A stretch of DNA of 60,407 nucleotides, filler included, from Sphacelaria rigidula (lineage: Eukaryota), in NCBI GenBank assembly GCA_964200075.2. It is 5 parts of 5 records of this genome, joined end to end, with 100 filler letters (N's around TTAATTAATTAA, not from the genome) between each part and the next. Parts side by side here need not be neighbours in the genome. Positions count along the whole stretch, not along the records: positions 48,408 to 60,407 come from CAXNAA020004249.1; 4 more parts are not named here. One strand, written 5' to 3'. Under the pieces are notes generated by a model. That model had not been told where the DNA came from. It worked only from the letters and a program-made list of their open reading frames with translations, and made no database searches. The position numbers were made by a program, and so were the translations under genes. Positions 13,565-60,407 of this stretch are shown here, piece by piece. How positions within the stretch are numbered: the stretch's first letter is position 1; the number at the start of each line of letters is the position of its first letter.

Positions 13565-13822
13565 TGTGACGAAAATACGCCGTTATGTTGAGTTGGTAGT
13601 GATGATATGGATAATGACTGGGGGCACGGGGATCCTGGAGGGCTCTGGATAATGACCGGGGGCACGGAGATGGTATATATACGTCTAGAAAGCTGGTGCC
13701 CTGGAAGGTCACTCCGATAATATGAGATGTCGTAAAGGCTGACAACTGAAACTGAGGCAAGGAAGGATAGGGAGTCCCTCAACAGCAGTGATCCAGCAGT
13801 TCTGCCACTGCCTGGCGTCATA
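13565..13822 (+). repeat. 5' LTR
   Basis: Colinear and ungapped with 18978-19235, with about 30 mismatches counted by eye. Confidence 0.93.
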
Positions 13823-18903: not shown

Positions 18904-18977
18904 CTCATTCATCGTTTTGGCGTTTTCGATGTTTCAAGCTTGTTGATCGATTTTTGCCCAACGCGCTTTGGGGGTGC

Positions 18978-19235
18978 TGTGACAAAAATACGCCGTTACG
19001 ATGAGTTGGTAGTGATGATATGGATAATGACTGGAGGCACGGAGATTATGAAGGATTCTGGATAATGACCGGAGACATGGAGATGGTATCTGTACGTCTA
19101 GTAAGCTGGTGCTCTGGGAGGTCACTCCAATAATATGAGATGCTGTAAAGGCTGACAACTGAAACTGAGGCCAGTAAGACTGGGAAGTCCCTCAACAGCA
19201 GTGATCCAGCCGTTCTGCCACTACCTGGCGTCGCA
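18978..19235 (+). repeat. 3' LTR
   Basis: Matches the 5' LTR and is preceded by a short G-rich tract (tttgggggtgc). Confidence 0.93.
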
Positions 19236-19548
19236 TAGCTCATCCAGGGCAAACGTGCATAGCTCATGCAGCTCTCATAGCTCACCCAGGACGAATGTGA
19301 GCTGATAAGCTACGGGTTGGTAGCTCACCTGTCGCAAACGTGCGTAGATCATATAGCTCCCATAGCTCACCCAGGACGGTATATGAGCTGATGAGCTACG
19401 AGTTGGTAGCTCACGCACGGTAAACATGCGTACCTCATACAGCTCTCATAGCTCACCCCAGGAAAAACATGCGTAGCTCATGTAGCTCTCATAGTTCACC
19501 AGGGAGCTACGCTGAAAAAGAGCTAGCTCGAGCTATAGGGAGCTGATC
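19236..19548. repeat. TAGCTC satellite (right part, resumes in register after the LTR element)
   Basis: Joining ...gggctggTAGC to tcatccagggcaaacgtgc... restores the unit consensus. Confidence 0.9.
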
Positions 19549-35800: not shown

Positions 35801-36000
35801 TACTGATTGTCGATAAGCCCGAACAAGTCCCCCAGTTGTAGGCTCGTGAGTTTATCTCTCCTTGTCCTGGGCTTTGCTTGGGACTGCTCCGGCTGCTTGT
35901 AATAGCCGAAGGGGATGCGGTCATTGTCATGGGAGAACTTGCAGCTCCCTGTGTCGTTGCTGCTGCAGTCCCGCCCATACGCATGGTTGAAGCACACGCC
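29890..36000 (-). pseudogene. gag-pol of the second gypsy element (several in-frame stops and frameshifts)
   Basis: ORFs 35650-35997, 35198-35680, 34015-35121, 33397-33786, 32848-33216, 32404-32835, 30295-32403 and 29890-30282 join into one polyprotein. Confidence 0.92.
31940..32845 (-). other. C5 cytosine-methyltransferase-like domain within pol
   Basis: Motifs in canonical order: I-II ALIVHCEGGGNILAAEKFLEVVAATDADWKALDCVRVN; IV region QPEVLVGDTSR (no PC); VI TTLILEST; VIII VSAV*VGAPYRKKRTYVVAL; IX-X-like LERVDFVKVATTLDYY...IVADFAHPWMMGAVL. Confidence 0.75.
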
Positions 36001-36206
36001 CAGAAGACGTATGGCGACGTCACGCTCCCCTTTGGGCGCCTCTTGGGCGGGAATGAAACCTGTCGCCGGTAATCGAGTGTACTCACACTCAATGTTGGAT
36101 ACACGCGGACAGGCCTGGATGAGTTGGAAATAGATATAGTGATTGGATTATGACATATGGGTGAAGGGCATATAAGAGATACAGTTCTGTTATTAAAGGT
36201 ATACCC

Positions 36207-36306: not shown

Positions 36307-36684
36307 GCGTCTTCCCCTTTGTTGTAGGTGGAGTTCGTGCCTACCATAACCATGCACTTTTTTTTTTTTTTTGGGGGGGGGGGGCTATCGTAGAAAGTGT
36401 CCCTAGAATACAGTGTATTTTCGCACTCAATCGGATACTTGAGGTACCTGAGGGTGTATGGTACTGCGATCACATTGGAAAAAGAGGATATCCATAATCT
36501 GCAGCAGCATAGCCTGCTAGGCGGACCTTCGAAACGCACCATCATCGATATTGAACATCTCTTTGTAACCATTAATATATTGATGAGGCACTCAAGGGCA
36601 CGACTAGAATGCAGATGGTGATCCGACACACACACAGAGAAAGGGTACAAAAAAGGAAAAAACAGCAAGAAAAAAAGTATGTAC

Positions 36685-39600
36685 CTGTCGGTTGAAGTCT
36701 CCCTGAAGAGATTCGTTGGCGAAGTTGATGAGCAGTTGCTCGAGGTTGTTCTTGGAGCCAAAGTTTTCGAACCCTGTCATACGGAAGATAACAGGAATAA
36801 AAACAGCGCAAGAGAAGTCAGGGGACGAGTCCTCACTGGAGAATAACCGGCGACGCAATTTTCCTGGAAAATGATTCATGACCTGCAACAGGTCCTCACC
36901 GAAAATGTCCAGCAGTCCAATAAATGGCAGTTTCTCGTCATCCGATAGCTTCCCTCCTGCCCCGAGCGACAGGTTGATCGCCTTCACTACCCAAAGGAAA
37001 ACCGCCTGCAAAGTTGTGTATGATTGCCATCGACACGTCGCAGGAAACGCAGAAAGAAACGATTTTTGTGAGAAGGAAAAAAACGAGGGTAAGATGACAC
37101 TCGATCAACATTCATCATTCCGAAACCATTACTCACCACGAGTTGAGCGAAGTAAAAAACGCAAGCAAACAATAGTGCGGACCGTACACGGTGAACAAAT
37201 GATCCAGCACCTTCAGCGCCTCTGTCGATGATGTCTTGTTCGCGTATCAAGAGTCAAACTTTGAGGGTAGCTGCACCGTGCATTCATCACATTTCCTCGA
37301 AAAAAAAACCAAGTCTCTCCAACATGTTTTCCTGAAAAAGTATCACCACCCCCTCCTTCTCAGCGTCAACGTTGCCCGTTCCAACATCTAACCTGAGATC
37401 AATTGCTCAACCTTTCAGGTCTCCCTCGACTCGCCCGCATGCGCGTCCAACACCATCCAATCAGGCCAAACCGGCAACTTTCCCCAACACATTCAGCACG
37501 AGTGTCTCGTGTGTGCCGTGATTGTTTTTACGGGTAGGGCCAGCTATGGATGCGCCTTCATTTCGAACAAATTCCGCAACATTTCCCTAGCCGATTCCCA
37601 AGACATGCATCGACCCACGGCACCCTAGTAAATGCTTCATTCGACACTCGATACGCCACGTACCCTATACACGAGACACGCAGGGACACCTTATACACAG
37701 GACACGTACGGTACCCTGAGGACTTCAATAATATGTACACATCGGACACGCAGGAGTACCCCACCCTGGGCATCTTCGAGATCAACGAGTACATGCCCCC
37801 AAGCGATATTCTGCCTCGAGTAAGGTGTATAGTACCTCGTAAAGAGACTTGATCGCTGCGTCTCGGGATCGCACAGCCTCCTTGATCCCCAAACGCTTGG
37901 TGAACACCTCCCCTCGAGTCACGGGCACCACCTTGATGGTCAGCATGTCCTCGAGATTCTTCACCCCAACCCCCAGAAGATTCGCCGTTGTCTCCAGCGT
38001 CTACAATAGCACCCCCCAACCCCCAAAAGCAGAAACAAGACGAGCAAGGAAGAAAAAATTCAAGGCTCGGACGAACGGATGATTCGTCTGGATATCACTT
38101 GATTTCATTGTAATTGAATCGTATCGTAAGAATCAATCCTTGGGCTTTGTTCTCAGCATTACACCCCAGGTACGCGTACCTCAGGCACAAGGAATCGCGT
38201 GCAATTGCGTGGAGATTTTCTTCATTTCATCAGAGAGCATTTTTTTCTTCCTCTTTTTCGGTCAATCAGGGCTAAAAACGTAGATTTGGTCATTCGAACC
38301 GCCGATGATTTCTCCGACCTTCGCAACATTTTACAATCTTCCCACATTCCTCCTCTTTTCCAACAACGGAAGGTACAGGTGTTTTCATTTATAGTCTCGC
38401 ACATTTCTTTTCATTTCCCTCTCACTTTAAACCCCTCTCCTTCCTCGGGATGAGTGTGTGGTGTCAAGGAATCAACCTATCTCTCCCCCGGTACGTGCCC
38501 TACATATTTGGTCTCGCGGATTGGGTCATGACTATCAGCACTCCGCACCGCGTCAACTCACGTCACACAAACCCAGTCGACTATGTTGTTTACTCACGTT
38601 CTCACTCTTTCCACGGTGGAAATTATATAGTACGATAAGAAACCCAACGCATCGGGAATCGAACCCCGTTCTTTCCACCCCAACGGCGAAATTCGGACCA
38701 CTACACCACGGGGGCGCGGCTCATCACCATCACCCAACACTGAAAACATGAATTACCTCTCTGTCCGAGATGGCTGCCACCGGACCTTCTTGGTGATCCG
38801 CCTCGCTGAATTGCAAAGTGGACAGGTGCAGCACAGCCGACAGCGCTTTCCATACCTGACGAAACAGAAAAGCAAATAATCGTCAAAATGGCGCAATCAA
38901 CTTTCCTTCCATCATTACTACAGCGCGTGATACTATTTAGCACACCATGGATTCATTATTGACGATACAGTCACCATTACTGAAAAAAAAAAACACAACG
39001 TACAGAAACAGTCACGTCAAGATAAAAAAAAAGTATATATGCCAAGCACCGATTTCCAAACTGAAAGCATCTTGTTTTTAAAAAAAGCACCTGTACGTAT
39101 CATCTTGTCCGGACTTCTTCCATCTTCAGAGTACAGCCAAATTGGAAAGATATCATCACGTCTTGTTCAGTACACCCGTGCTCACCTTTCAAACCACCTC
39201 ACTTTTTCCAAAAATAAAAATGAAAAATAACCCGAAAATAGCCCTTATACATATGCGATCGACTCATGAAGGACACCCCCCCCCCCCCGTTCCCCCCGCG
39301 CGCATGTATCCCTCCTCGCCCACCTGTAGCTGCACGTCTTCCTCCACACCCATGGTTGTCAAGGCCACCTGTATGGCCTTGAAACGTTCCGCATCGTCAA
39401 CGCCTTCCAATCGGATGCATCCACTGGATGCCAGGATGGGGTACGAGGAGGCGCCTCCCAACTGAACATCGGGGATATCACAAACGGAGCAAAAAAAAAA
39501 ACGAGACGGACACCGAAAAATATATATTTTTATAAGTGACATGACGGTTGTGAGGTCGTGTAGGCGGGGCCGGAAACAAACATATTTCCTGAGCGTGATA

Positions 39601-42600
39601 CACAATCATGCACGCTCGCTACGCGCTCGTGCGTGGGTAGCAACGTCGCCTAGCGGGGAGAGAGCGGGTGATAGGTCCATTTTGAAAGCTTGCAAACAAA
39701 ACTAGCTACTTGCAGGGGCATGTCACCATGGTTCTTCCCGGCCAAAGTGATCCTACTCCTCGGGCTTTCCTTCAACCACATCAGCGAGATACGTTTCCCT
39801 GCCCAGTGCTATACCTTGAGCTGCTTGCCCAGATCAGATCGGCCGGCTCCCGCCACCATCTCGTAGAGAATGTGAAAGTTTCGCTCTCCCTGTGTTGGAA
39901 GATGACCGTTAACATACCACGTCGAACAAAACGCGCGGTAAAAAAAGACGAGGAACAGAGTAATGGGTGAGCCAACTATTCCTCATCCTACAAACAGATT
40001 GAGGGTATGATGTACAAAACGTTCTTCACACCTTTTGACCCATCACTCAAGGGGGGGGGGGGGGGGGGGGGGTTTTCTTTCTGAAAACCCCCCCCCCCTG
40101 TTTTTTTAATATCAAGAACCCACCTTTGCGGAGGGGGNNNNNNNNNNAGTGGGCTCCCGGCTTGCCGGGTGTTTGCAAGAGAGGCGGGGGCGGGGGGCGT
40201 GCGACATATCTTTCTGTGACAACACCACCACTGATATTCTATTATCAAGAGCCCACATTTGCCGGAAGGGAGAGAGCACGGGACGGGACGGGACGGGACG
40301 GGGGGGTTCAAGGGAAGGGCTTCTAACTCCAACAAATTAGAGTGCCAGACGTGGTCAGACTTTGAAAAAACCATGTTCCTCGAGTCGGGGCAAGTATTTG
40401 TGCATTTTGCGTCACTTTCGTATGAGTCTACCGCAAGTCAGAGAGGTCAAAATGATGAACGATAGTGATGACAACACCAGTGAGGCGGCTGAGTTCTTTA
40501 GTTTCATGAAGACCGCGCCGCACCGACGAGTGTGCGCATAGGGGAAAAAACGTACTGGTTACGCAAATGGGAACACTCCTGCAGCTAATAGGCGGCTCGC
40601 AGGTAGGTCGGCTCGCAGGTAGGTACCTCCCTATTGCTTAGTAGTGGTTCCTGGGCAACATGTAAAATTGTGTCATATGCCCAAAAAATAGGGACAGCAG
40701 TGGCCGGGAGAAAGTGAAGCGGGGCATGGTATCTATGGTGCCGAAACTGAGGGATATGCCACCCTCTGCATCTTGAAAAAAGTTCCAACTTGAAATATGG
40801 CTCCGTTTCTTCATCTTCCATGATGAACTGGGCTGATGACGGCAAATGCTCGTCGTTCTCCCCGTAACCCTACAACGTTTCCCGCTCTCTGTTGTAGAGC
40901 GTGGACGGTGCGCACACTCAACACACACCCACGTCGACCAGGGAAACTGCAACCGGGGAAGCGCGGTAAGCATATCCTGCACATCACGTGTCACCAACGG
41001 CCGCATCACGACACCCACGCTGAAACAACGGATATCCACCACACTCTGGACAATGAACACAAATATAGACAATTGCTTCAGTATTAGACGTGGGGGAAAA
41101 CCTAACGATATACATTGTCGAGCACAAAAAACGAAGAGATGCATCTATTGATACGTTTCGTCAGGGACAATATATGTGTGCGGGAGTCGATCAATAGTCC
41201 ATGGCATATTGCAATGGATTGAAATCACTGGCCATCGATGAGCATCGCGTACCACAAAACATGCTGGGATGTATTTATCGATGGCCATGGCCGTAATCAA
41301 GATATTTGGTTTGTCACCCATCTATCGGTAGCCTTCGCCGTCACCAATAGATTCGGTGAACAATCTATCGATAGCCTCTGCCGCCAACAATGGATTCCGG
41401 GGTATTTATCAATTTAGCCAATGACGTTGACTATCGATTGATTTGGGGAGCATCTATCGATAGCCAGTGACGCCAACGATAGGTTTTGTTGAATATATTG
41501 TTCACGATAGTATTAATAGTCTGATCACATCGACGGCAATACCACTCACACCTTAATTGTCTCATGTCCACCAGAGGGACAACCATGACTCCAAACACCA
41601 CATCAACAACAAAATTCGCAAACTGTTGTTCACACATCTTGCCGATTCCGACAATATACAATCGTCCCAAAAATTAAGAACCGTGACGTCATAAATTCAC
41701 AAGTGATATCATATATTTCACACAAAAAAACTCGTAAGCTTATGTTCACACATGTTGCGAATTCCTTCCACATAAAATCGTTCCAAAATTTTGGAATCGT
41801 GATGTCATAGTTTCACAAGAAGTGTCTACCTGTGGCTTCTCTACTGTACTTCAACAGAGTATAACATACGCTATGCATATCATGTTGCAACGTAAGTGCG
41901 GCAATAGACGACGGAGGATTTCTACCGGGAGGCATTGTATACCGCAGTAGATGATGGTATGTATCTATCGCTACTAATTGCCATGGACAGATTTTGTACG
42001 CAATCTATCAGTATCAATTTCCGTCATCGATATATTTGGCATACAGTCATAAGCCATCGCCATCAAAAGATTTGGCACACCGTCCATCGATCGCCATTTC
42101 CGTCACTGATATATTTGAAAAACTATGGATCGATACATTCGGTCGGCGCTTTTAGTTTTCGATGTACGCCCACAACAGACTGCTGCCCGGACAAAAGTGA
42201 GGGAAAGGGGTCTTTCGATAGACATTGCCGACAACAATGGAAAGAGAACCTTGTCGATCGACAGCCATCACGGATGAGAATGCTGGCATCTACTGCGGCA
42301 GACTCTCTCGTTACTGCAATTTTAAACTTCTCATTGTTATTATAATTTCCGCATATTAGTCCCATCTCTCGAACCCGTGGTCACAGGCGATGCCGTCTGT
42401 TGTCCAGGGCGGATATATCCAACAATTTATCCATCCCTCCACTCCTCTTCACCCACAACACCTCAACGATCTACCATGTTCGCTCTTCAGTGAACCTACG
42501 CCGCCCCCCACGAGCTCGAAGCACCCACGACCATCTACACATACCTCTCCCTGCGCGAGCACGCGGCTTTTCTCCAGTAGGTACGGTTCGATAAACGCGC

Positions 42601-45600
42601 CGTCCAGACATGCGATTTCCCCCGTGGTGAATCGAAGCTTGAGGAACTTTCCGAACCTGGACGAGTTGTCGTTCCTCAAGGTCTTGGCATTACCGAACGA
42701 CTCCAAGATGGGGGATGACTCCAGCACTTTCTGCTCTAGCGCGGCGTTCGCAACGCCGGAGGAACGTCGTGCAAGATACCTGCTCGACGGGTCACAACGG
42801 TTTTATGTTATTTGCCGAAAACAATTATCAAGTGATGAGTGACTGTGATCAACCAACCACTCTGAAGTACATAGGACGACAGCGGGTACCAACATTTCGG
42901 ACGTGAACACGCTACCGACAAGATGATGACGATACACTCAAGACGTGAGGTATAATTCTGCACCAGATAGAAGTGAAATCTACATGGGGTATAGTGTTGT
43001 TTCGATCCAGAATAATTTCTTCAGAAATTGATGGAAATCGTCTGCTATACTCGTACAGCATCTGATTTTTGAGCTTGTCATTTCCGTGTGTTTGGGAGGG
43101 GAGATGATATACTCATTGGTTGCTTGGATAAGTCGTTTCACCATTGCTCGCGCTTCTCTTTCGAGACGGAGCACCGTTCCTATTCCTAATAGAGACACCT
43201 TTAACATTGGATGGGGGGGGGGGGGGGGGGGGAAGAAAAAATTTTTTAGAAAAAAAAAAAAATTTTTCCGGGCAAAAATTTTGGGGGGGGGAAACAACAA
43301 AAAAAAAAAAAAAANNNNNNNNNNGTTGGGTGTGTTAGTGGGGTGGGGGTGGTGGGGGGGGGGGGCAGTAAAAGCTTACTTGAAGTAAAATAAATCATTT
43401 CCGTGTCATCAATTCGAGTTGGGGACACAACCAAATAAACAAATAAAAACGACTCGGAATCTCGGAGCACATGGACAAGTAAAAATTTCGAAAAAGGAAC
43501 GAGTATGCAGCTCCTGCTGTACGAACGAAGTTGCAACGCGCACAGCCTATACCTATATACAACACAAGTAGGCATTGCCACTATTGATGATGATTTTGAT
43601 TGGTTGATTGATTGCCGCACATTAACTTACCCCCCCGGGATCCAGCCGTGGTCACGTGATGGACGTACCCGAGGGAAAAAAACTGAAAAAAAAAGGAACA
43701 AAAAAACTCGAAGAGGACGACGTGTGAAGGACATGAAAGAAAAAAGACAATCAACGTCAACAAGAGCAAAGCCGAGAAAGAATGACCTACCTGAAGAACA
43801 AAAAAAGAGTTAGGGTTCGGAGAGTCATCATATCGAAAAAAGACGTAGCACGCCCGTTACCCACCTCAAGATAATCTTGACCGTTTCCGTCTTCCCCGCT
43901 CCGGACTCCCCCGACACAACGATTGACTGGTTTGTCCCTTCCCGACCAGCCCCCATGCGCATTTGTCGGTACGAGAGCTGCACAAATCAGGGAAGGAAGG
44001 AGGAAGGATAAGGGAACGGGGGAAAAAAAGGAAATGTGAAGAAGAATCGGTCACTTCCAGGGGCAGAAACAATTTTCTCGTCATGAATGCCTTTTGTACA
44101 ATCCCAAGCAAGTGGCGGTCGTCTTCGGAATAAATTCCCGTAAATACCCAAGTACCTTTGGACTTGAAAAATATGTCAAAATAGTACGCACTGTCAGAAA
44201 ATTCATGTATTGGCGGTGACGCACCCACTGCCGCTGATACGGTCATGATACAATCAAACAGACTTGTCGGTCATGTGCCAGAACATTTGTTGCCACGAGC
44301 AAAGCGGGAGGTTTCACGCCCAGCGTTCATTGGGGGTTCGCGAATCGAGCAGATGTCGCTACACACGTCACAATACGTGTAAAAAATACTGATGCTCATT
44401 AATAAGAGTAGTCACCCATATTTTTTTTGCTGTGTTTCTTGTCGTTCTTGAGTTCCTTCAGCGCCCACGTCCTTCTGTTTTAATAATGAGGCGTGACAAT
44501 CCCGTGTACATTTGGAGTATGGCCGTTGTATGCGTTAATTCCTCCTTCATTACCCATGACAGCAGAGTCGAACGATAGCACAAGTTTCCACTCTTGGAGG
44601 AGCCAAATGCCAAGCATGGCAGTCCATAGCAACGGCGAGCGGGCGGTTGGGCGGGCGTGCGGGTGGGTTGACGTTTTGGGGGCGCGTTCTTCACACACAC
44701 GACGTAGCACTCCAAGTTGCCTCAAGCCAAGTCTCCGCCAACACAACCAACAGCTCAAACCCCAGCAGGTCCGTATCCCGCAGAGCTTGTCGTGCTACTG
44801 TACGCGGTGTACCGTTCTATACCATGATATTGAAATGTGCGTGGCAAAGATTCCACGGCCTCAAGCCCCCCTGTCTTACCTTCCGGTCAGACTAACTCTT
44901 CCGAACCGCTGAAAAATAGCCAGGTCAACGACTCAGGCCTGTAACGGTTCTATTAGTTCCCCAATATGGGGAGGAGTCTGATATCCAAATATGTCACTCC
45001 CTCCCTCCCCCCGTACACGCCTTGCAGCTCGATATCGCGCGTTCGGCTAGCCTTTGCCCATAGCGTTTACCGTCGTTAGACAATACTCGGCTTCTTACTG
45101 CTCATATCTTCACGCGGTCAAACAACAAAAATCAAATATTTCTCAAAAGTGAAGGGAAAACGTCTGTCGAGATTGAGACCCTCAGATATCCGTTGTAACA
45201 TCCCAACAGGCGTCAGCTGGGCCCGCTGGACCGCCGGGACACGGCCGCATTTTTTCCGTATCTTTGTACTCCTACTTCAGGCCTTCCCTTTCCTCCAGAC
45301 AGGCACATAGTTGCGAGGTATGACTCAAGGTCACTCCCTCGGCACAAGCCTAACCTTACGGCGTGGCGGATTGAATGAGCAACCCCGCATAGCATCGTCC
45401 CCAAGGGAAAAATAAAGCTCGTCACACATGGCCCAATCACGCCATTCGACGATAGAAATCAGGTACTTCTCCGAAGAAAAAAAACATGTCTGTCGGAATA
45501 GGGACCCTTCGTCTTCTTTAACATCTCAACAGGTCTTAGCTCGGTCCGTTGAACCACCAGGGCGCGGGCGCATTCTTTGTTCTCATAATACTTGCACTCC

Positions 45601-46959: not shown

Positions 46960-46988
46960 GGGTTAGGGTTAGGGTTAGGGTTAGGGTT
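46960..46988 (+). repeat. Interstitial telomere-like (TTAGGG)4
   Basis: gggttagggttagggttagggttagggtt, directly after a ccaagg...ccttgg hairpin. Confidence 0.85.
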
Positions 46989-48407: not shown

Positions 48408-50010
48408 CGCACAACATGATCTAGCTCGACCACCACCATGGTTACCGCAAAAAAAACTCAAGCGCGCAAAAAAGAATCGGTAACCTGGTTGCCTCGCTTA
48501 CGCAGTGAGTGGCGTGGGGGGCTATAGCTTGTAGCTTGAAGCTAGATGGCGAGAGGCCATAGGCTGCAATACCCTGTGTCCAGAGGCTGCAATGACCCAC
48601 TGCTGCGTCATGTATCATGAGTATACGTAGTGCGGACACAAAGGGTTGGCATATATACCATGGTATATATATATATAGATATGGTATATATGTCATACCC
48701 TTTGTGCGGACACGTTGTTTCGACAGGTGCTGCCGAAACAAAGAAAAGTTTAAACAATCGTCACGTGACAGCTGTACAGCTGTCTGTTGAGTGTTCTCTG
48801 CTACTTCAGTTATCGTCGGGGGCTGTGGTCGGAGAAGATACACCAGGCGGGTGCGCGCAGGTTGGGACATACAACCTGAGCCAGCACGCCGGAGCTGCTG
48901 TATCCTCGTTCATTGCCGGTAGCAGCTGTCTGTGTCGCAGCGGCGCAATGTGTAGACCAATCACAGCCGCTTTTCGATACCTCCTTCTCATATCTCTCAT
49001 CTGGTTGAAGAAAGGTCGCCGCATCTTGGTATATTTAAAGACTCTGATTGGTCGAGAAACCTTGCAAATCATACTCTTTGCCCCTATCTGTGGGCCCAGT
49101 GCCTATTTTTCAATCAAGCACATTTCTTAAAACTTCGAATACCCAAATTGTCGTCTTCCCCTCATGCTACTGCCACAACGCGACAACAAGGACGCGAAGG
49201 GGGCGCAGAAGGTACGCATATTTTCGCAGAAAAAAGGTTCAAGTGAGGCATAAAACAAGGGGGGGGGGCGTATTCATTTGTTGCTTGCCTTAGTCATTTG
49301 ACCATTGACCACGCATCCCTTTCGAGACGGAGCACCGCATAAAACAAGGGGGGAGAGCTCATTAAAAACTAAAAGTGAGGCACGTGTGAAAAGGGGTCCC
49401 GAATTATGAGGGGTGTTCGTGAAACAATATGCGAAAGGAACCATCGAGGGGGAGTCGCCAGCAACGTACACGAAGGTGGCACATGCTCGAAATAAATGCA
49501 CCTCACCTCCGGCACAGGTTTGAATATACACGGCTAGCCGCGAGAATATGTGACGGCTCGGAGACATACGGGGTGTTACACACTTCAGGACGTTGCCTAT
49601 CTAAACACGTGCTCGATTGCATGCCACATGGCGGTACTCACGAGATGCTTCGTCTCCGGGGTGCCTTTGGGTTGTGCTTCGCGTTCTCCAGTAGATTACG
49701 CGACACACCATACATACGCCTGCGAGAAACAACAATTGCAAACGTACTTCTCCGAAGCAATCATAGAGCCTTTGCGCGGCCCCAGCTTCTCGTATGGCAC
49801 CTGCCGGTGAACCCAGGCAAATCTCGCTGAAGACGTGGTCAACCTAGCGAAGTCCTGCTGTTCGAGCTCCAGCCGCTGCGCATCATGCATGCCTTTGATA
49901 AACTTTCCGACAGAGTCCAGTATCGTGCAGCAGCGGAAAGACATAGTCACCATCGTACAGAGGTCGGTTGGCCGCTTCAAGCACTTGGGACCAGGTGGAG
50001 GGGTTGCACA

Positions 50011-50310
50011 TTGATTGATTGCTTGATTCTCTCACATTAGCTGATTGCAACAATCCAGCCCATGGTCAGGAGCAACAAAAGTAGAACATAATAATAAAAA
50101 AATACAAAAAAAAGAAAGGACAGAAGCAACGGCCTCAGAAAGGAAAGAAAGGGGGCAGCGATAACAACAAAAACCACCACAACCACCACCACCACCACCA
50201 CCAACAACAACAAAATAACGACAAACACGAACACAAACACAAGCACGAACAAAAACAAAAAAAATACGATTATCGCGCATTATTACGTAGCTGATTGCAA
50301 CACTCCAGCT
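50011..50310 (-). mobile_element. SINE-like / non-LTR 3' end with (AATC)n tail
   Basis: Reverse-complement homologue of 28093-28411. Confidence 0.75.
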
Positions 50311-51224
50311 CCAAATCAGAAACAAACATGGGGTGGTGGCAGCTCCTGTTTTTCGGATGGAAACGTTGTCGACCGCCTCAAGGGGTGGAGTGTTCTGCAA
50401 AACGCGTGAGAACAGAAAGCGGCCGGCCTCGGTCAAGGGCATGGTGGGTGGCGCAGACTGCTGTTTACGCGGATGCAGGAAAGAGTAGCTCAGCTGATAC
50501 TGAGTTCGTGAGGGTGGACATCGGTGTCGAGTGGACAAGCGCATCCGCGCGAACCGATGCTCTGTCTTTACCACAATTTTGTTGTGGCACTTTGAAGTAC
50601 TGTTCACAGGGATACGGGCGTATGTACAGCATCGATCGAACCCCCCTTCGTCATCTGTACACGCTTAGGGGCATATAAACGCCAGAAAACGCATGATAGA
50701 TGGAAAATGAAATTTCGAGTTCAAATCTGTGCTTCTGTGGTGAAACTTCGGCGGGGCGAAGGTTTTCCAACTGCATGCCGTGTGTATACGGATAGTATTT
50801 AGGCGAATTGCAGCACCGGGGTTCCTGTGCAGTCTTCCTCGTGGGGGGACCGAACGCAACAGTACACATGAGACAGTCATGACACCTTGTCCTATCCGTC
50901 TTGTCGTGTCAACATCAAAGAACGTATGAGCGCTGTAACCTTCTGATTTTCAAAACGACGGGAATGTGAACTTGGGAGCACCCGCTTGTGCGGTGTCGTG
51001 TCCGCACGTCGCACCTTAGGGGCAAGATTGAAGATTTACCGGGATGTGCACCGTACGTGCTAATGCCTCAGCACAACGTACAACAACAAAAAAACGCCGA
51101 CACATCCGCCAACGCGTCCACCCCCACACCCCGCTCAGACCATTACACACCACACCCGTTTCATCCAGGCAGTAAGTAAGTCACAGCTAGCGCGATCCTG
51201 ATACTCGACCTGTAGTACAGTGAA

Positions 51225-54200
51225 ATGGCCGTGGCTCTCACGGTCGCCGATGAAGGCGTTCCACCGTCCCCCCTCGATACGGCAGGGGCAAACAGTAAGC
51301 TGGAGGCTTGGTTGCACAAACGGCACGTTGGACGTTTCGACATCCCCCTTAGCCAGTTGACTCTAACGTCGCTGTCCAGGGAACTGAATCTGCGAGGACT
51401 ACAAGACGTCATGAGGTCTATCAAGGTGAGTGGGTGCCTTACTCACAACCCACCAGCCGTCGTACTTGGCAGCGAGGCAGGTGATTCGGTCACTGCTGAG
51501 GCCATGGCAGGCGCTTCTTTTCGTGTCCTAGACGGCAACCACCGAGTCAACACAGGACAGCGCATCTTCGGGCTGGAGAAGCGTATTCCATGCAATGTGT
51601 ACAGGGATATATCGGCGAACGACATGCACATCATCGGAGATGGTGGGTCATACTGTCACACCTGGAATCGTACCTCGTGGTTTGGTGCTCATTAGGTGTT
51701 TGTTCTAATTTTGCAGTGGTCTGCACGGGGTCAGCCCCTCCCCAAAAATACTCCGCACCTCCCTGCGCTGGGGCGGTGGAATCGATCCGAGCAAAACTCT
51801 CTCGTTTTGATGCAGTCGGGTGCCTATGGATTTTCAAGCTTTCGATCCAAAAAGACAGTGCAGCTTTGCAAGTGCAGGTCGGGTAGAGTATACTCGATTG
51901 CGGGATATTTTGGAAGTCGTACTTACTGTACACGGATTGGGGGTAGGGTTTCAGAGCGACTTTTACGGCAACAAACCCCGGTTTTTACACATAATAGGAG
52001 CACGTCAGCCCGTCTACAGGCGATTTTCTCACGTGGATTCATTTTTCGGACCCCAGTCCGTTGGGATCGCGCTCCGGATATTTTGTGGGTAAGACTCCGT
52101 ACCACGCAGTTTCGTCCCTGATGCCCGCCATAGGAGAAGATGCGCAAGGTTTCGCCAACAAAAAATAAACAAAGCACACCCGACTACTGTAGTGCATCTA
52201 TCCCTGTGCTCAACTCTTGCTCTATGCTGCAGGGTTGCGGTCGTAGCTGAGAATGAGTTGGATGTAGTTTGAATCATCATGTGAACTGGTGATGTTTGGC
52301 GTATAGGCGTGTTTGTGTTCAAATCATCAAGCTGAATTTTTGTTTTTTACTATTTTTTGTTTGAAGCCCCGTTTCAACGTTTTTCTTAATCAGGCGTGCT
52401 TTATGCGCCTTATTCCCGTCCTTGTTGTGGCGTTGTAGGAGTATCCCTTCACGAGGCGCGCCGTCTAGCACACGGGCGAGACGACAAGTTGGGCATCCGA
52501 AGTTTGTGTTGATTATTATAAAAATGAAGCTTTTCCTCTGTTCTCGAGTTTGGAGCCCACAACCTGCACACCGACTGCACGAGTCACCATCCCTAATCGA
52601 CCACGTCAAAACGTTCACTCTCCACATACTCATGTCGGCACGACGGCGCAGCCTTGAACGAGGTGGGAGAGACGCTGTCAGAACGGAACAAGTACGATAA
52701 ATTTTATATGTTCATGGGGATCATCGGGTCCATACAAGATCGCACGAAAAAAGATAATGTCGGAGCGGAAGCGATTTCAGAGGAGTTTACGAAGGTGAGT
52801 GGGAATCTGAGAAAGGGCTCTTTTGGAGCTTTCACGTCGTCGTAAACCACAAGCGAGAGCTAGACGGACACCGACACGTTGGAATGATTTGCTCTACTCG
52901 TTGGGGTGGTTCCAGGACATTTCCTCGTTCTCCGTTGGCCGTACTTTTTCTTTTCGCCAACCAAAAACTTAAGTTCAAGAACAGTCGGAAACGGTCAAAT
53001 ACAAAGAAATTCGCCATAAATTAGCCATATTTTTCTGTATTTGACCCTTCCCGGACATTAAATCTTCTTTGACCAAAATAAAAAATGCGGCCACCGAGAA
53101 AGGGGAAAATGTCCAGGGCCCACCTCAATGAGTGAAACAAATCATCGTAAGGTGTCAAATTCCGCCTAGCTCTCTGTTTAGGCGTGGAACTATGCCAGAG
53201 TTACATGGCAGTTTTCCAGGTTTTGATTTCAGTTTGTTATAAGAAGCGGCCTGAGTGGCGTGCTCGAGTAGATAGGAGTATATCGTTTCACGGGACCAAC
53301 ACTGCTGCTGTACCGCATCGCCGACTTCACTAGAGTGTGGCGTGCACTGCATGACACAGACCATGATGCTACACCCTACTCTACGCTCCGACGCGGCAGT
53401 CGGCTGCAGGAAGAGTACATACGCCTGCTCTTTCGGTTCTCACTTCACTTGTTGCCAGGGCTCGGGTGTGTGTATATGTTTGTATCCACGTGTGAGCGGG
53501 GGTGACCAGCCCATACACTTCGCACCCCGTTGTGGCAACGTACGAGAAGCTGAGGTTAGTTGAGGTTGCTTGATTCGGATCTGGGGTCAGTGGACCACTT
53601 CCTTCGTTCGACCACTTCTCACTCTCACTGCTTACACCCACGGTTTCCGAATACGTCAAATGAAGATACTAGAGAACAGTTGATGTTGTTGGATTACACC
53701 CGATTGCCCTGCCTGAACTCCGTATTGTTCGTCCACTGCGCTCTGTCAGCGCGCGCGGGGTAACTTGAATCGCGTGACGATAGCCCGAGCAAAAACAGAA
53801 ATGTTCGACAGTAACACATGTTTCCTACGTCCGTCAATGCATGCCGGCACCCCCGGCCCCTCTTCAAACCGACAGCTGCACGTGCGGGTCTCGTCCATGA
53901 CGACTCTGCGGCAATGGAAAAAAGCGGTTGTGTCGACATCGCCAGAAGCGATGAAGGCCATCGCTTGGGCGTTTCAATGCGACCACCGTGGCGTTGACTC
54001 GGGAGCCATATCCCTGGCTTTTTTCAAAAGCAAGCAGTACGCAGACCTGCATGATAAACCCCAGGCCCAATCCATCGCGATCAACATGCTCGTCAGGTAT
54101 ACACCACCCGTCTAATGCGGCTAGATAATCCCATGATCCTTACTTTATCGCATCTTGCGTCAGGGTCAATCGCTGGGGACTTCGACGTACGATGCGTAGT

Positions 54201-57200
54201 GTAACGCACCCGAACCCGACGCCCACAAAAACACAGACGCCGATCGTGCATCGCTGAGGAACGCGCTGGAGCGGCCACCCTCTAATCACACACCGCTCAA
54301 CATGAATAATGAAATCGCTCATTGCACATCGGCGATGATGACCGTTTTCAGACGAGAATGTTTCTCATCAGCATCGGACTCTTGTACATTCAGGGTCCCG
54401 TGGAAGGGTCTCCGAAAACGAGAGCACCAGACAGAGTTGCCGGTGGGCGGGACATCAGTTCCGCCACACGCGGCTTCCCTTGGTCCCGTCATGCAGCATC
54501 TAACGGGTGAAAAGTCTTATGTACTCTTCACAGCACACATTATATATTCGCGCTGCCCGCAGGTTCCAAACGGCGAACAAGACGAATCCTAAAGCGAGTG
54601 ACTGGGGGCGTATCTCCACAGATGCACAAACAGCCGCAACCCTCCTGGAGCGTTCAGAGAGGCAGATCCCTCGTGAGGCGTGGACCGACGTCTTCGAAGA
54701 GTAAGTTTGCATTAACTGTAACACACGCGTCGATTGCGGTGGACCGTAACCGTTGTCGTAGGCTACAGCATTTCGAAAGTAAGGACCGCGCGTGCAGCAC
54801 ACGTTTGTGTTACGCTTAGGCTTGCACCCCGTATGCTAGCACACTTTCTGGCATCATTCCACCTTGCATAAAAAGCGTTGCGTTTCAGCAGGTGGCATAG
54901 ATAGCGCAGCGTTTCGGCAAGTAGCGTAATCGATAATATTTTTTAAATCGCGGGCAAAATCGAGCATGTATTCTCTAGTAGAGTTGGCAACAATGATCTA
55001 AATGTCGACGTGGTGTGATATGTTGGGGTTAAACTCTGCTATCATCGACCGCGGCCGGGTCTGAAATACGTGAATGTTGAGGAACCAGTCATTCAAACTG
55101 CCGGTCTGACTTTCGTTTCTTTGTTTCACTTCATATATCTAAACATGTATTCACAGTGTGTACTATGCATGTAGTGATCAGTGGGTCTGGATCCAGTCGA
55201 AATGGCGCGCTTGTTGGATATTTCGAGCATAATTGAGCATAAATCCCATCTTGCGAGCATAGATCGAGCACATATTTTGTGAAATTCGCGCATAAATTGC
55301 GCTCCACGAGCCGAATCTTTTGTGTAACTACTAGCATTACAAAATGACTTTACTAGCATGAGTGGCAAAAGCGTAGTAACGCTCACGGGAGGTATTTTGC
55401 GCTCCGCGAACATCATCGCGACTAGGGTTGCTCGCGAGTTGACTCGCGGCACATACGGGCTGGAGGATTTCAAGCTGCACGTCACGGACTTCATCACATC
55501 AGTAGACAACAGCATGAAAGAGACACGGGCAAGCCTGCCCGAGGAAGAACGGAATGGAGCAGCCATGAAGGAGTTCGAAGATGTCTGTTTGGGCAAACTC
55601 CAACGGCGGCTGGACCCGGTACGTGACCGATACACAAAAGTCAAGAGTTAAATGTTGGATAGTGAGTAATTCGGGCGATAGGTTGCCAAGACGATACAAA
55701 CGTAAGGTGGATCGGACATGCTGCTGTGAAAAATTAGTCCAAATCGCGCAGAACGGGCTTGCGACGCGCGAAATTGGCGCATGCCAGTCATGGGCACAAC
55801 AAGGATGATACCCGATCGTCCAGCAACGTGGTGGGGAGACAATTGAAACATTTCCGCGAGGTTGTTTCCTACATTTTCAACCACGGCCCGTTTTCGCGGA
55901 AAGCGCAAAGAGGGGCCCTGAGGCGGTACAACGATAGCTGGAGGAAGAGGTGGGACGAGGCCAACAACACCATCGCTTGCTTGAAGTTGGCGAACGCGGG
56001 CAGCGAGAAAGACGACGACGAGGATGCTGGTGAATCGGAGGAGAATGATAGCGGTTGTTAACGACCGGCTGACGGCAGCCGCAAAGACGAATTGTGTCCC
56101 TCGTGCGACCCATCATCAGACGTCAGGTGAGAAGGGATAGTATGAATCAACACGTCAGCCGTTTCGACGGTGCCGAGCACACCAGTTGACCTCGCGGAGT
56201 ACAATGCTGCCGTCCACAAGAACGCTTCGTGTAATGATTGAAAGAGCAATCACCTTGCCTGGAACACCGTCAACCGCTCGACACTTTCATGCCGTCCTCG
56301 CAGTTGCAGATAACATTGCGTACACTGCGGGATGAAGCACCAGACCTTCTGTGAGCTGCTTGTGCCCGTCTCCGAGGATGCATCTCTTGCCGAGAGGAAG
56401 CGACGTCTTTGCCTTGTCTGCGAGGACGAGCCGGGGCACCAGAAGAGGAAAGGGGACATAACTGACGGGATCGGAGGCGGAGGGAATCTAAAAAATAGGG
56501 GAAGAAATCGTCACAAGCAGAGCAGTTGCTGCCCCCTGTCGGTCCCACCGTGGAAATCAGAAGGGGCGAGGATAGGTTGCCGTTGTGGAGACTGTGTTGT
56601 CGACTGAAGCTCACCTTTAGATTGCTCCTTTAGACGACGGTTGTGACAGCATGCATAAGTCGGTCGACATGCGACACTGGGACTGTCAAGCGCAGCTGTT
56701 TGGAGGTGCCCTTCCTGTCTTTCGGCCCTTGAGGACGACGGCGCGCGGTAATTCTGACCGCCATTGGTACGGCAGAATCCGATCATATCCACATGTATAC
56801 CATCTCCAGTGATAAATGATGGAGAAGGCGTTGAGTATGATCCTGGTGGCCGTTGAGGAGGTCGATCAACCTCGCGCACTGCTCGACCATGAAAACCTGA
56901 CGGTGCAGCCGCCAGCCTAGCCACCGTAGTGGAACGCACGCCGAAGAATTACGCCGGATTAGCCCCCACCCCAACGCCAGCCCAAAACCGCCAGCGAAAC
57001 AATGAATGGCTATCCACCGTGTGATGTTCGATTCCAGAGTGCATGGAGAGCCTTGTTTACTCGACATGGGCGAAAACAAACAGAAGCATTAATATTCTAA
57101 TCTGCTCAATATGAGGGTATTTTTTCATATCGATTTTACGTGTTGGTTGTTGCCCCCCCCAAACCAACCACTTTCTCGGGACGGGCTATATCGGAGAACA

Positions 57201-60200
57201 CACGCCACACCCCACGACATGCGGACGACCAGCGCGCAACGAAGGAAAACTGACGATGCTATTGCGTGCTTGCGACGTGATATTGTACAGGGCTCATCAC
57301 GCGAGCATACACGAGGATAATCTACTCCGCCGCCACTGCACTCTTATTGACCAACAAGAGCCACTCCCTGTGAAAAGACCGCCGAAGCTCATCATAGTCT
57401 CCATCGATGTCGAGAAAACAATGCTGAGCACGACAAACGATGACAACAGGGGATACTTCAGGCGGTTCGTTGAAAAGGTGCTGGGGGTCTTGCATCCGAT
57501 GGGCACCATCGCCTTTGCAGTCCCGCGGCCCTGGAATCGACACGGACATCGTATCCAAGGTATCACGGTCTGCACGGTTCGTGGCAGGCACAACCGCGGC
57601 ATCGATGTTGCTGAAAACAGGGTAGACACGTCTTGGTCGGTATCCGCCACACGAGCGCGGATAGGGTAAAGTGCGTGCTTCGTTTAGTCCGTCACATTGA
57701 ATCGCTGATTTCGTACATCGTTCATTGCTCTGATACGGCGTCCTGTGGTGATCTTGATACTCCCCGGGCACCCCCCGAACATCCACCGTCGCTGCGATCC
57801 ACCGCGGCGCGCACCTCTACGCAGACGCGATCGAAGTCGACCCTTCTATGGTGGTCGAAGACGACTACGTGGAGGCTCCCGAAAGAAACACGAGAGGTAT
57901 CATTTTTACCCTCACATGGAGGGCATTATGGTGGGACACAAGCAACCGAGCGAAGAGAACAAAACATTCACGGTAAACCCGAGGGTGACCTTCGCCGATC
58001 CGTACAGCACGAAGAGCAACGGTAAAGCGCCAGAATGCTGGCAAAAAATGGGCAGGGGGGCAGAGGACAAGCTTGCGTACAAGCAGGGCGGGCCTGTTGG
58101 GGGACCTGTCAATTCCCTCCCGCCGCGGGTACTGACTACATTCGTCAACAGGTGATAACATATTTTCTGACCCCGTATCCTCCTTCCCATCTTAGACAGT
58201 ATGCACTTTCGACGATCCTAGTGGAAACTTCACTTCCGGTGGGCGGGTGACGCCGGAACATGCCGCGCCGTGAAAGACATGAGATGAGTCGATGTCATCG
58301 TGGGCGTTGTGGCCAACAACACCCGCATATATATGTGTGTCACTTCCGGATGTTGTGCTTTTGTCGAACGGAAGGGGGTCCGAAATACTAGAGAGATCCG
58401 AGGCATGCATGCACATGGTAATTTGTACATGTTGGGACAAGTCTCCGCAAAAGCTTCGAGCGGGAATCATCAAATTCAAAATGCTCCCCACAGTGATTGG
58501 TTGTGGTGAATCTTTCATGACGTCGGGATCATCGTACTGTCATCGGACAGGTTTTCCCTGGCAGGAGATGCCGTGATGGGGATCGGGGTGGAGAGCTGGC
58601 AGCTACTGGAAGTCGCTCTCGAGTTCGGTCGTCCCACGGAGCTCTTCCTCCACAACCGCGGTCTCGCGACCGAGGTTGGGGGCCGTATGGAGAGAGCCTT
58701 CCAAAAGGCTTTTATGTCGGGGATGTTCAAGGCAAGCCTCCAAAAAACCGAATGCTTGCTCGAGGTATCGCGATCCTTACTCCGCGTCTTTGGCCGATGC
58801 GCAGGCACCGAATCGGATTTGATTACTCGCGACTTACATCTGATGTGCCAGATGAAGCTCACACCAATGACCCCGACCTCGCGTGTGTTCATGCGTCACG
58901 TTTGACGGCAGTATGATATCAGCGGCGAGGTGTTCGTGGGGCCGACGCTGCTCCCATCAGCGCTGCCCGCAGACACTACGCCGGGAGGATTGCTGGTTCG
59001 GGGTCCGGGAGACACGACCGAAAAGATCATGACGGGTGGTGCACAGACTTTCGGCTACACGCTGGAGGTGAGAACAGCGCTGCATGGGGGGCGGTAAAGA
59101 CACGGTAATCCCGTAGTCCTCTTTTCCTTCGCCTCTTACCGTCGTTTGCGTCCTGATGTGTACGTGAGTGTCTCATGATTTGAAGGGATGCCGAGCGTGC
59201 ACGAGAAAAAACAAAAACGCACACCTATGAGCCTTTTCCCCCCCCTACCCTAACGGGACGAAACGGGACGTGGTAGAGGGAGAAATCCGGGACGTGAACA
59301 AAGGTGGTATGCAATCGTTTGGTGCATTAGACAACAGGGAGAAAACGATGGCTCTCCTAGGAGATAGACGGTGGCTAGAGACGGCGAAACAGAACGGGGA
59401 TAAGATGCAAAAGGTTTTTGTCTAATACGTGGAAAAACGTGGTGAGCTCGTGAAGAAACGTGATGAGCGCAAAAATGTTGAGGTGTCTTCATTAGGAGTA
59501 GGAACGGTGCTCCGTCTCGAAAAACATGCGTGGTCAATGGTCAAACGACTGAGGCAAGCAACAAACGAGTACGCCCCTCCCCCTACCCACTGAGAGGTCG
59601 GTCCAAATGAAAAAGGTGACATAGGTGTGCATTTTGTTTTTCGTACACCCTTGATGATGTAGTTTTTTTTACTGCGTGGTATCGAGTTTTTTTCCCTCCT
59701 GCTTTACCGCACCTTGTGAAAGACACATTCTTTTTCGGGTCCATTTATGGGCGCGTCCACATCGCGATGCCCGGGGGACATGTGGTTTCGGGAACAACTA
59801 CACATCGTGGTTTTGAGACCCCTGTCTGAGCGCTGATTCCAACCACTGCCCCTCCTCTGTATCCCGAACTGACTGTCTCATGTTCGTTGCCGCCGCCCGT
59901 CTCTACCTTGTCCACCGTTGAACTCGGTCGCAGCGTTCGACGTCCAATCAGATGAACGAGCTGTTCCTCATAACGAAGCCAGGCCAGCAGAAGATCCTAC
60001 ACCCTGAAATTCCCTCGTGGGGAAAGTACCGGGTATACAACACGCCCAGAGAGGCTGTAATGTCGATACCTCGAGAAATCCTGGATCAGAAATGTATTGG
60101 CCTGGTCTTGGTCGCATCCAACAGACAACTCAGGCGCCTCGTAGAACCCGGCAGGGAAGCCTGCCAGCCGGAAGCGGCACTGTATTTGGAGGTCTCAGAC

Positions 60201-60407
60201 ACCTGCTCATTCTACCACTTGGAATGGGATACGTGCGGGGAGGGGGTTGTGATGGGGATCAGGTCGAAAATACCACACAACGGCCCCAGAGACTCCTATA
60301 TTACCGCTGCGATAGGCAGCGCAGATGGTACGCAGCATGCTGTGATAGTCAGTGTGCAAGAGAGTCGAGAGAGGAAAGAGAGGCTCACCGCGAAGCAGCG
60401 TATCGCG
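51225..60407 (+). CDS. Multi-exon ParB/Srx-domain protein with a degenerate N6-A/N4-C methyltransferase-like fold and a possible SET-like C-terminal region (partial; may be a pseudogene)
   Basis: Phase-consistent exons 51225-51642 (DIPLSQL...LQDVMRSIKVSG...FRVLDGNHRV), 52652-52794, 53876-54096, 54563-54700, 55357-55618. Later coding blocks lie at ~55752-56058, ~57350-57620 (YFRRFVEKVLGVLHPMGTIAFAV), ~57900-58151, ~58196-58238 (ALSTILVETSLP), 58565-58764 (GDAVMGIGVESWQLLEVALEFGRPTELF), 58912-59067 and 59952-end (open frame). The splice structure between 55620 and 58560 is unresolved, so one gene rather than two is an inference. Confidence 0.65.
52867..53156. mobile_element. Intronic foldback/MITE-like element
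   Basis: Left arm gacacc...atgatttg...ggacattt...tggccg...ggtcaaataca pairs with right arm tgtatttgacc...cggcca...aaatgtcc...caaatcat...ggtgtc. Confidence 0.75.
59090..59712. mobile_element. Intronic diverged inverted-repeat element
   Basis: aaaaacaaaaacgcacacctatg (~59207-59229) pairs with cataggtgtgcattttgttttt (~59620-59641). Outer gcggtaaag pairs with ctttaccgc. It contains a copy of the gagacggagcaccg repeat. Confidence 0.5.

Follow-up and report, generated by a model that had tools for sequence, protein, structure and literature searches.

Does the end of a repeat-rich stretch of the Sphacelaria rigidula genome encode a single protein in which a ParB-like domain is joined to a DNA methylase, and would such a methylase be an enzyme at all? 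The window, by which we mean the whole stretch of 60,407 nucleotides (nt) taken from assembly GCA_964200075.2, is eukaryotic, intron-rich and repeat-rich, with N gaps, and consists of five joined parts that are not necessarily neighbours in the genome; positions 48,408-60,407 come from CAXNAA020004249.1. We read the locus that starts at 51225 and runs to the window end as one brown-algal gene of at least 13 exons, encoding an N-terminal domain with the ParB/sulfiredoxin (Srx) fold and a dead domain derived from a beta-class methylase, and put the probability of this reading at about 0.58. The occurrence of a ParB core and a degenerate beta-class methylase-like domain within one spliced brown-algal gene is itself real. 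The predicted protein, probably about 1050 residues long with 998 codons inside the window, would begin with the ParB/Srx-fold domain and its DGNHR nucleotide-pocket motif, continue through a helical region, a Cys-rich CxxC…CxxC block and a low-complexity linker into the methylase-descended domain, and end in a lineage-specific tail of unknown fold.

An earlier note on this DNA had recognized a ParB/Srx core with the motif VLDGNHR in exon 1, and structure prediction agrees. An AlphaFold2 model of exon 1, built from a 69-row alignment of the N-domain family (A1), reached a predicted local distance difference test score (pLDDT) of 87.5 and a predicted template modelling (TM) score of 0.75. When this model was compared with the PDB by Foldseek, 24 matches were obtained at E ≤ 0.001, and among the matches listed all are ParB, Noc, KorB, PadC or Srx, led by the ParB structure 6sdk_A (E = 2e-5, TM 0.51), with the best ones giving TM scores of 0.50-0.53 across 105 columns. 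The G-x-x-R type nucleotide-pocket motif of these proteins (GERR, GGCHR or DGxHR) is present as DGNHR at residues 103-107, and each of its residues (D103, G104, N105, H106, R107) is either invariant or conserved to at least 90% across the 69 aligned family sequences. The closest relative of exon 1 (P0001; 52% identity, phmmer E = 1.3e-31) matches two PHROG ‘ParB-like partition protein’ families (E = 5.1e-6 and 4e-5), and weak ParB-clan Pfam matches occur in two of 71 relatives (GmrSD_N, E = 0.0036; ddrB-ParB, E = 0.007). Profile comparison with 26 chromosomal ParB proteins by hhalign placed the GERR box II opposite DGNHR in an alignment that stops before the helical region. Given the fold matches and this weak profile match with GERR opposite DGNHR, the exon 1 domain belongs to the ParB/Srx fold as a DGxHR-type member and is distinct from the canonical partition ParB. 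DGNHR stands in place of GERR in Srx and nuclease-type ParB domains as well. Matches of the 69-row profile to phycocyanin among the PDB sequences arose by chance through a look-alike DGNKR motif and were discarded. Separately, small proteins on two phage-like metagenome contigs (L158 3832-4542 and L159 9677-10699) carry the signature RV(L/I)DGNHRI, so that the DGNHR-type domain occurs on such contigs too.

The C-terminal half of the protein was compared with beta-class methylases by hhalign. For this, the blocks of 57291-58764, joined as a conceptual splice, were added to a C-terminal family alignment that had been made without the window sequence (A3), giving a four-row alignment that includes the Cladosiphon relative described below; the reference (A4) held 11 beta-class methylases, namely Escherichia coli YhdJ and 10 diverse phage enzymes. 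On this shallow family alignment (number of effective sequences, Neff, 1.8), which includes the conceptual splice, the comparison gave a probability of 72% and P = 3.4e-5 over 179 colinear columns, with the RVLK-like unit at one end and GR.F.G.E at the other. Its score of 41.4 compares with 16.4 for reversed columns, 13.1±2.7 for 60 column shuffles (maximum 24.5) and 16.0±3.5 for 60 block shuffles (maximum 25.1). With A3 alone, only the S-adenosylmethionine (SAM) loop and motif I region aligned (42 columns, P = 0.0025). A lead in the same direction came from ESM-Atlas features, which for residues 575-815 of the Cladosiphon protein returned N6_N4_Mtase clusters only (score 0.91, 157-162 of 256 features shared). 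The permuted beta-class order is kept in the hhalign alignment, with the catalytic strand first and the SAM-binding unit last, as the earlier note had described for the blocks of 57350-58764. At the profile level, then, the domain is supported as a putative descendant of an adenine-N6/cytosine-N4 (N6A/N4C) DNA methylase.

Both motifs that define such enzymes are missing. No (D/N/S)PP(Y/F/W) catalytic motif occurs in any of the four family sequences in either candidate register: the DPPY position is occupied by SIDVEK in the window, CLNRAP in Cladosiphon and CLTRSP in the fragment P0078 in the register of the earlier note, and by DSDL or DIEL in the greedy hhalign register. The FxGxG SAM loop is likewise missing, the reference DPFxGSGTT lying opposite GIGVESWQ in the window and TFTAESDG in Cladosiphon. 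Because DPPY and FxGxG are both gone, we read the domain as a pseudo-methylase, a view the earlier note had already taken.

What ties the two domains together is a single protein of Cladosiphon okamuranus (P0033, EukProt g13236.t1, 843 residues; isoforms P0075 and P0076), which consists of a ParB-like domain, a helical region, a Cys-rich block, acidic and basic linkers, and a C-terminal domain with the blocks picked out in the earlier note. Our 13-exon model of the window, listed here together with its single stop codon, is colinear with residues 31-840 of this protein, with a score of 335 compared with 65.6±10.1 in 100 shuffles (maximum 92.5) and 184 of 663 aligned residues identical:

51225..51642, plus strand: exon 1, with the start codon and the ParB/Srx-fold domain with DGNHR; donor GTGGGT
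52652..52794, plus strand: exon 2, start of the helical region (ALNEVGETL...); tblastn match to P0002 with 59% identity, E = 3.5e-14; phases fit
53876..54096, plus strand: exon 3, helical region (…TLRQWKKAVVSTSPEAMKAIAWAF…); tblastn match to P0002 with 50% identity, E = 3.3e-16
54563..54700, plus strand: exon 4, tblastn match to P0002 with E = 2.2e-6
55426..55618, plus strand: exon 5 (inferred), from phase and GT-AG logic only, within the colinear P0033 alignment
55738..55985, plus strand: exon 6 (inferred), helical block …WDEANNTIACL, aligned with …ADIENN… of P0033; weak donor GTTGGC
56304..56549, plus strand: exon 7 (inferred), Cys-rich CxxC…CxxC block and basic Gly-rich linker, in a layout like CAIC…CKDC of P0033
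56311..56313, plus strand: in-frame TAA within exon 7, the sole stop in the 13-exon model
57291..57559, plus strand: exon 8, first methylase-like part, with the strand KLIIVSIDVEKT at the expected DPPY place and the unit RRFVEKVLGVLHPMGTIAF
57825..57868, plus strand: exon 9 (inferred), with a 53-nt GT-AG intron (57869-57921) after it
57922..58151, plus strand: exon 10, middle of the methylase-like domain, ending …PPRVLTTFVN; acceptor with pyrimidine tract (taccctcacatggag)
58551..58764, plus strand: exon 11, degenerate SAM-loop region FSLAGDAVMGIGVESWQLLEVALEFGRPTELF, the motif I region in hhalign
58912..59067, plus strand: exon 12, start of the C-terminal tail, identical in P0083
59934..60407, plus strand: exon 13, tail, multi-copy, running open to the window end

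All 12 junctions are GT-AG and the phases are consistent. Exons 1-4 and their junctions are fixed by a Sphacelaria paralogue (P0002, 301 residues) that matches in four successive tblastn blocks. Among the contigs assembled from sequencing runs X1, X4, X5 and X6 (the run search gave seven runs from two studies), X1 pieces span 53870-54098 and 54561-54701, that is, exons 3 and 4. Exon 8 is based on the hhalign match to the beta-class profile and on local alignment to P0033. At the 3′ end, the partial Sphacelaria rigidula protein P0083 (137 residues) corresponds letter for letter to 58576-58731, 58912-59067 and 59934 onward, this public annotation using an alternative GC donor after 58731 in exon 11. 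An X1 contig joins 59065 to 59932 between exons 12 and 13 (GT..AG, cut +2); it could alternatively be a genomic copy that lacks the repeat-bearing intron. An apparent frameshift at 57896/57898 was dropped, since the 53-nt GT-AG intron keeps the frame. The earlier note is thus upheld in proposing a spliced eukaryotic gene, and its joining of ParB and methylase-like parts in one protein holds in Cladosiphon and is matched here by a phase-consistent GT-AG chain. One block it had placed before the SAM loop does not survive: no GT/AG pair gives LSTILVETSLP (58196-58238) a phase that would join it to GDAVMGIGV, and a mini-exon at these positions was rejected as out of phase with every such pair. The helix that precedes the SAM loop is PPRVLTTFVN, which closes exon 10 and is spliced at 58151|58551 to R-FSLAGDAVMGIGVES (…PPRVLTTFVN|R-FSLAGD). 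In this way the gene model of a so far only partly annotated locus is corrected.

The family to which the gene belongs is brown-algal. A phmmer search with exon 1 against 1.84 billion representative sequences found 71 proteins at E ≤ 0.001 (14 at ≤ 1e-10 and one at ≤ 1e-30), from which three repeat proteins with several matched stretches (P0015, P0053 and P0069) were dropped; the 68 kept form 68 clusters below 50% identity. The three clusters that carry names, among 20 looked up, are all from brown algae (Sphacelaria rigidula, Pylaiella littoralis and Cladosiphon okamuranus). A word-index search with P0033 returned only the protein itself, and one with its C-terminal region two fragments. Nothing was found for P0033 in the PDB below E = 0.14 or for A3 at E ≤ 10; among 50,697 phage records P0033 had no tblastn match at E ≤ 1, and viral contigs scanned with exon 1 and the tail yielded no confirmed relative. 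A metagenome scan with a further alignment (A5) hit two loci, where motif-level matches of 29-35 residues lie in small phage-like open reading frames (ORFs), and was set aside as uninformative on the algal gene. One relative, P0045 (30% identity to exon 1), belongs to a 90% cluster of 45 near-identical members on contigs of 36 kb to 1.6 Mb; these could reflect either a high copy number in one genome or repeated assembly of the same organism. Together, the 68 clusters and the 45-member cluster hint at mobility or expansion of the family.

Several observations weigh against the reading of the locus as one gene for a dead ParB-methylase protein. In Pfam scans, none of the 11 stop-to-stop blocks of 51225-60407 matched a ParB, methylase or SET family at E ≤ 1, three chance hits being the only ones returned; exon 1 has no match to ParB_N (PF02195) at the same threshold, and neither ParB_N nor N6_N4_Mtase was found among its 71 relatives (E ≤ 0.01). 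The hhalign match of the N-terminal family to the 26 chromosomal ParB proteins is weak (probability 1.5%, P = 0.033), profile searches against PDB sequences gave chance hits only, the family alignment behind the methylase match is shallow, and an AlphaFold2 model of the Cladosiphon C-terminal domain from a four-row alignment reached a pLDDT of 34.4, with no structural support for a methylase fold. As to the gene model, exons 5-10 come from phase and splice-site logic without transcript support, no splicing is seen in X1 contigs over 55542-55935 or 56379-57159, exon 6 has a poor donor (GTTGGC), and one intron measures only 53 nt. To these are added the in-frame TAA, a public annotation (P0083) that begins at 58576 inside exon 11 without the ParB part, and a set of 39 listed differences between the window and the run contigs, of which 26 lie within what were then taken as coding blocks, with 9 synonymous changes and 17 non-synonymous ones (two of the latter are in intron 6 of the final model); such a ratio suggests weak constraint at best. 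Where a link to a transposon is concerned, the 69 ORFs of 36.3-51.4 kb include no member of a transposase family, no long inverted repeats or terminal inverted repeats flank the gene in the window, whose end cuts off the gene's 3′ side, and a myosin gene lies upstream on the minus strand, divergent from the ParB gene.

These points bear first on whether the locus is a decaying pseudogene, left over from a formerly active ParB-methylase element gene and without function of its own. The TAA, the excess of non-synonymous differences, the partial public annotation, the many partial copies of the tail and the degenerate catalytic motifs would all follow from decay, and yet we regard this as unlikely. 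Base 56313 is C, giving TAC (Tyr), in every contig that covers it (one from X1, one from X4 and two from X6, with no cover in X5), so that three runs contradict the stop, and the remaining 12 exons are open and in phase across 9 kb. Moreover, the same motif loss is seen in Cladosiphon and in the fragments P0077 and P0078; loss shared in this way therefore points to an old, maintained pseudo-enzyme rather than to fresh decay.

Two or more separate genes, a short ParB-like one made up of exons 1-4 and an unrelated downstream one with the methylase-like part and the tail, would be a second way to account for the locus. None of the seven listed runs is on record as RNA and the contigs are unspliced in the middle of the locus; P0083 starts only at 58576, the middle exons depend on weak splice sites such as GTTGGC, and most database relatives of exon 1 are short N-terminal pieces of 100-300 residues. 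The short entries, however, are for the most part from contigs only about 1-8 kb long, whereas Cladosiphon g13236, in P0033 and both isoforms, predicts the two parts in one protein that is colinear with the window, and 12 of 12 junctions here are GT-AG and in phase. Separate genes are accordingly improbable, and a single gene with both domains is the reading we retain.

That the methylase-like domain might still write N6-methyladenine or N4-methylcytosine with non-canonical motifs is hardly credible, for while the overall beta-class layout is kept and an Ectocarpus relative of the same protein type is described, in the accessible part of PMC12477816, as a predicted N4C/N6A methylase, both defining motifs are missing in four of four family sequences in either alignment and Pfam PF01555 does not score.

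The tail raises a question of its own, as the earlier note had likened it to a SET domain. Its 210 residues after the methylase-like domain match five Sphacelaria proteins, four at 82-88% identity and P0083 at 100%. By a rough and uncalibrated measure, the word depth of X4 contigs is about 250-850 over the ParB-methylase part and about 19,000 over 59668-60407, a rise of about 50-fold from which we take this part of the tail to be multi-copy. A divergent SET domain over 58912-60407 and beyond would make the product a ParB-methylase-SET protein, like red-algal PAG2 and PAG3 fused, and would find a precedent in the PF01555-SET fusions among red-algal transposon accessory genes (bioRxiv 10.1101/2025.02.11.637652, as far as its accessible text goes) and in the phase link of the tail to the methylase-like exon; but with no SET or other Pfam family at E ≤ 10 in the tail pieces or in P0079, P0081 and P0083, a single chance hit (E = 1.2) in phmmer against the PDB, none of the motifs NHxCxPN, GEEL-Y and ELxFDY in the tail, and an hhalign score of 14.1 (probability 0.4%) that falls inside the shuffle range (12.1±2.1, maximum 21.2, n = 40) for an alignment with Neff 1.1 against 36 bacterial-only SET domains, we consider it very improbable. 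The resemblance has therefore found no Pfam, PDB-sequence or profile-profile signal at that alignment depth and with that bacterial reference.

The surroundings of the gene contain the following features:

36607-37104, 39267-39605 and 42452-42802, minus strand: exons with Myosin_head matches, three of the 69 ORFs of 36.3-51.4 kb, best E = 1.2e-25
59481..59584, no strand assigned: very high-copy dispersed repeat inside intron 12, with inverted copies at 43110-43200 and 49258-49337

Because the divergent upstream gene is a myosin gene, the 5′ neighbour is an ordinary host gene. The dispersed repeat (at 43097-43176, 49258-49337 and 59481-59584) has a huge word depth in all four runs, peaking at about 1.9 million in bin 49000-49380, and looks like an element of the miniature inverted-repeat transposable type. 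Its copies at 49258-49337 and 59505-59584 were considered as the ends of an element and rejected, as this is a very high-copy short repeat whose right copy lies inside intron 12. Intron 1 holds another repeat (52048-52428), with an X4 word depth of about 64,000 as against about 350 in the bin with most of exon 1, and an interstitial telomere-like repeat (GGGTTA x 4.8) lies at 46960-46988. No tandem inverted-repeat array stands beside the gene within 36-60.4 kb, and no tRNA genes or Rfam families were found in the window.

Two long terminal repeat (LTR) retroelements also lie in the window, with RVT_1, rve, RT_RNaseH_2 and Integrase_H2C2 matches at 15.5-16.7 kb on the plus strand and 30.3-35.2 kb on the minus strand. 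The minus-strand element (29890-36147) lies downstream of the last detected myosin-head exon (36607-37104) and is possibly inside an intron of the myosin gene. An ORF just past its integrase has a PTM/DIR17-like Tudor domain (PF21743, E = 3.8e-8), at a place where chromodomains are more usual. The second element, which is gypsy-like (RVT_1 at 15543-16664), lies between repeat blocks at 12560-13819 and 18976-19500, with 85-bp tandem units; these blocks are probably its LTRs.

What might a protein of this kind do? We suggest that the ParB-like module may bind DNA, possibly in a nucleotide-dependent manner, that the dead methylase domain would act as a DNA-binding or protein-scaffold module that writes no methyl mark, and that the protein might in this way label or protect certain DNA, be it the protein's own element or loci of the host. 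The idea in the earlier note that the gene is cargo of a large DNA transposon is plausible by analogy with the systems described below, while the association with chromatin that it supposed would be purely conjectural. A bolder proposal, which we regard as a long shot, is that brown algae maintain a large and fast-diverging family of dead ParB-methylase proteins, whose members, acting on DNA as ‘readers’ or nucleotide-dependent clamps, would label, protect or partition giant transposons or domesticated forms derived from them and write no mark on the DNA; it is based on the 68 clusters below 50% identity and on the motif loss common to Sphacelaria and Cladosiphon. If true, a eukaryote would here possess a ParB-based means of self-recognition that does not depend on methylation. 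The ParB-methylase accessory proteins of giant algal transposons were described only in 2025, and here a dead form has kept their layout in Sphacelaria and Cladosiphon. Should the dead form be maintained, the useful property of the methylase domain would therefore be DNA or protein binding, not methylation. This would narrow the hypotheses on how elements recognize their own DNA or protect it in a lineage reported to be without cytosine methylation, as the accessible part of PMC12477816 states for Ectocarpus.

Among known systems, the closest in kind is the Ectocarpus element Sola1-1_Ec32 (21.5 kb), which, in the accessible part of PMC12477816, carries a 1104-residue accessory protein with a ParB-like region and an N4C/N6A methylase, encoded on the strand opposite that of the transposase, and is bounded by 282-bp imperfect terminal inverted repeats. 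As described there, the two proteins are alike in coming from brown algae, in joining a ParB-like N-terminus to a prokaryote-type methylase-type domain over about 1000-1100 residues, and in having intron-bearing genes. They differ in that the Ectocarpus domain is a recognizable N4C/N6A methylase, whereas the one here is invisible to Pfam and has lost both motifs, a comparison made by description only; nor did the window yield a Sola1 transposase, 282-bp terminal inverted repeats or a target-site duplication. The red-algal Plavaka elements, according to the accessible text of a preprint on Bostrychia (bioRxiv 10.1101/2025.02.11.637652), have two accessory genes, PAG2 with PF01555 and SET and PAG3 with a ParB-like domain and a 2-oxoglutarate (2OG) oxygenase. 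There too, ParB-like and beta-class methylase modules are algal transposon cargo, the ParB part being proposed to bind the element's own DNA. Unlike in Plavaka as so described, however, the modules here are on one protein rather than two, SET and 2OG domains were not detected, and a tandem inverted-repeat array is lacking beside the gene within the interval given above. Further eukaryotic cases are reported in the accessible part of the review by Iyer et al. 2015 (PMC4738411): chlorophytes and chytrids have methylases linked to ParB, and haptophytes have methylases whose origin lies in phage ParB-terminase loci.

Phage and plasmid ParB-methylase fusions and E. coli YhdJ (PF01555) share with the algal protein the catalytic strand, the RVLK-like unit, and the helix, SAM loop and GR.F.G.E, and the fusions are further matched by the ParB/Srx fold of the N-terminal domain. 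In contrast to them, the algal gene has lost DPPY and FxGxG, has 12 introns and long low-complexity linkers, and has added a Cys-rich block and a tail. With the chromosomal ParB, Noc and KorB clamps, which depend on cytidine triphosphate, it has in common the fold of the N-domain, an Arg at the box I position and DGNHR in register with GERR, but GERR itself is replaced by DGNHR and the profile similarity is weak. The full-text search turned up only PMC12477816, bioRxiv 10.1101/2025.02.11.637652 and PMC4738411 as work on ParB-methylase proteins of eukaryotes, and their accessible parts held no motif-dead form. ParB-methylase accessory proteins of transposons are thus already published for Ectocarpus and red algae; the Sphacelaria gene fits among those of giant algal DNA transposons, although its methylase part is apparently dead as a catalyst, and it is this dead form that appears new.

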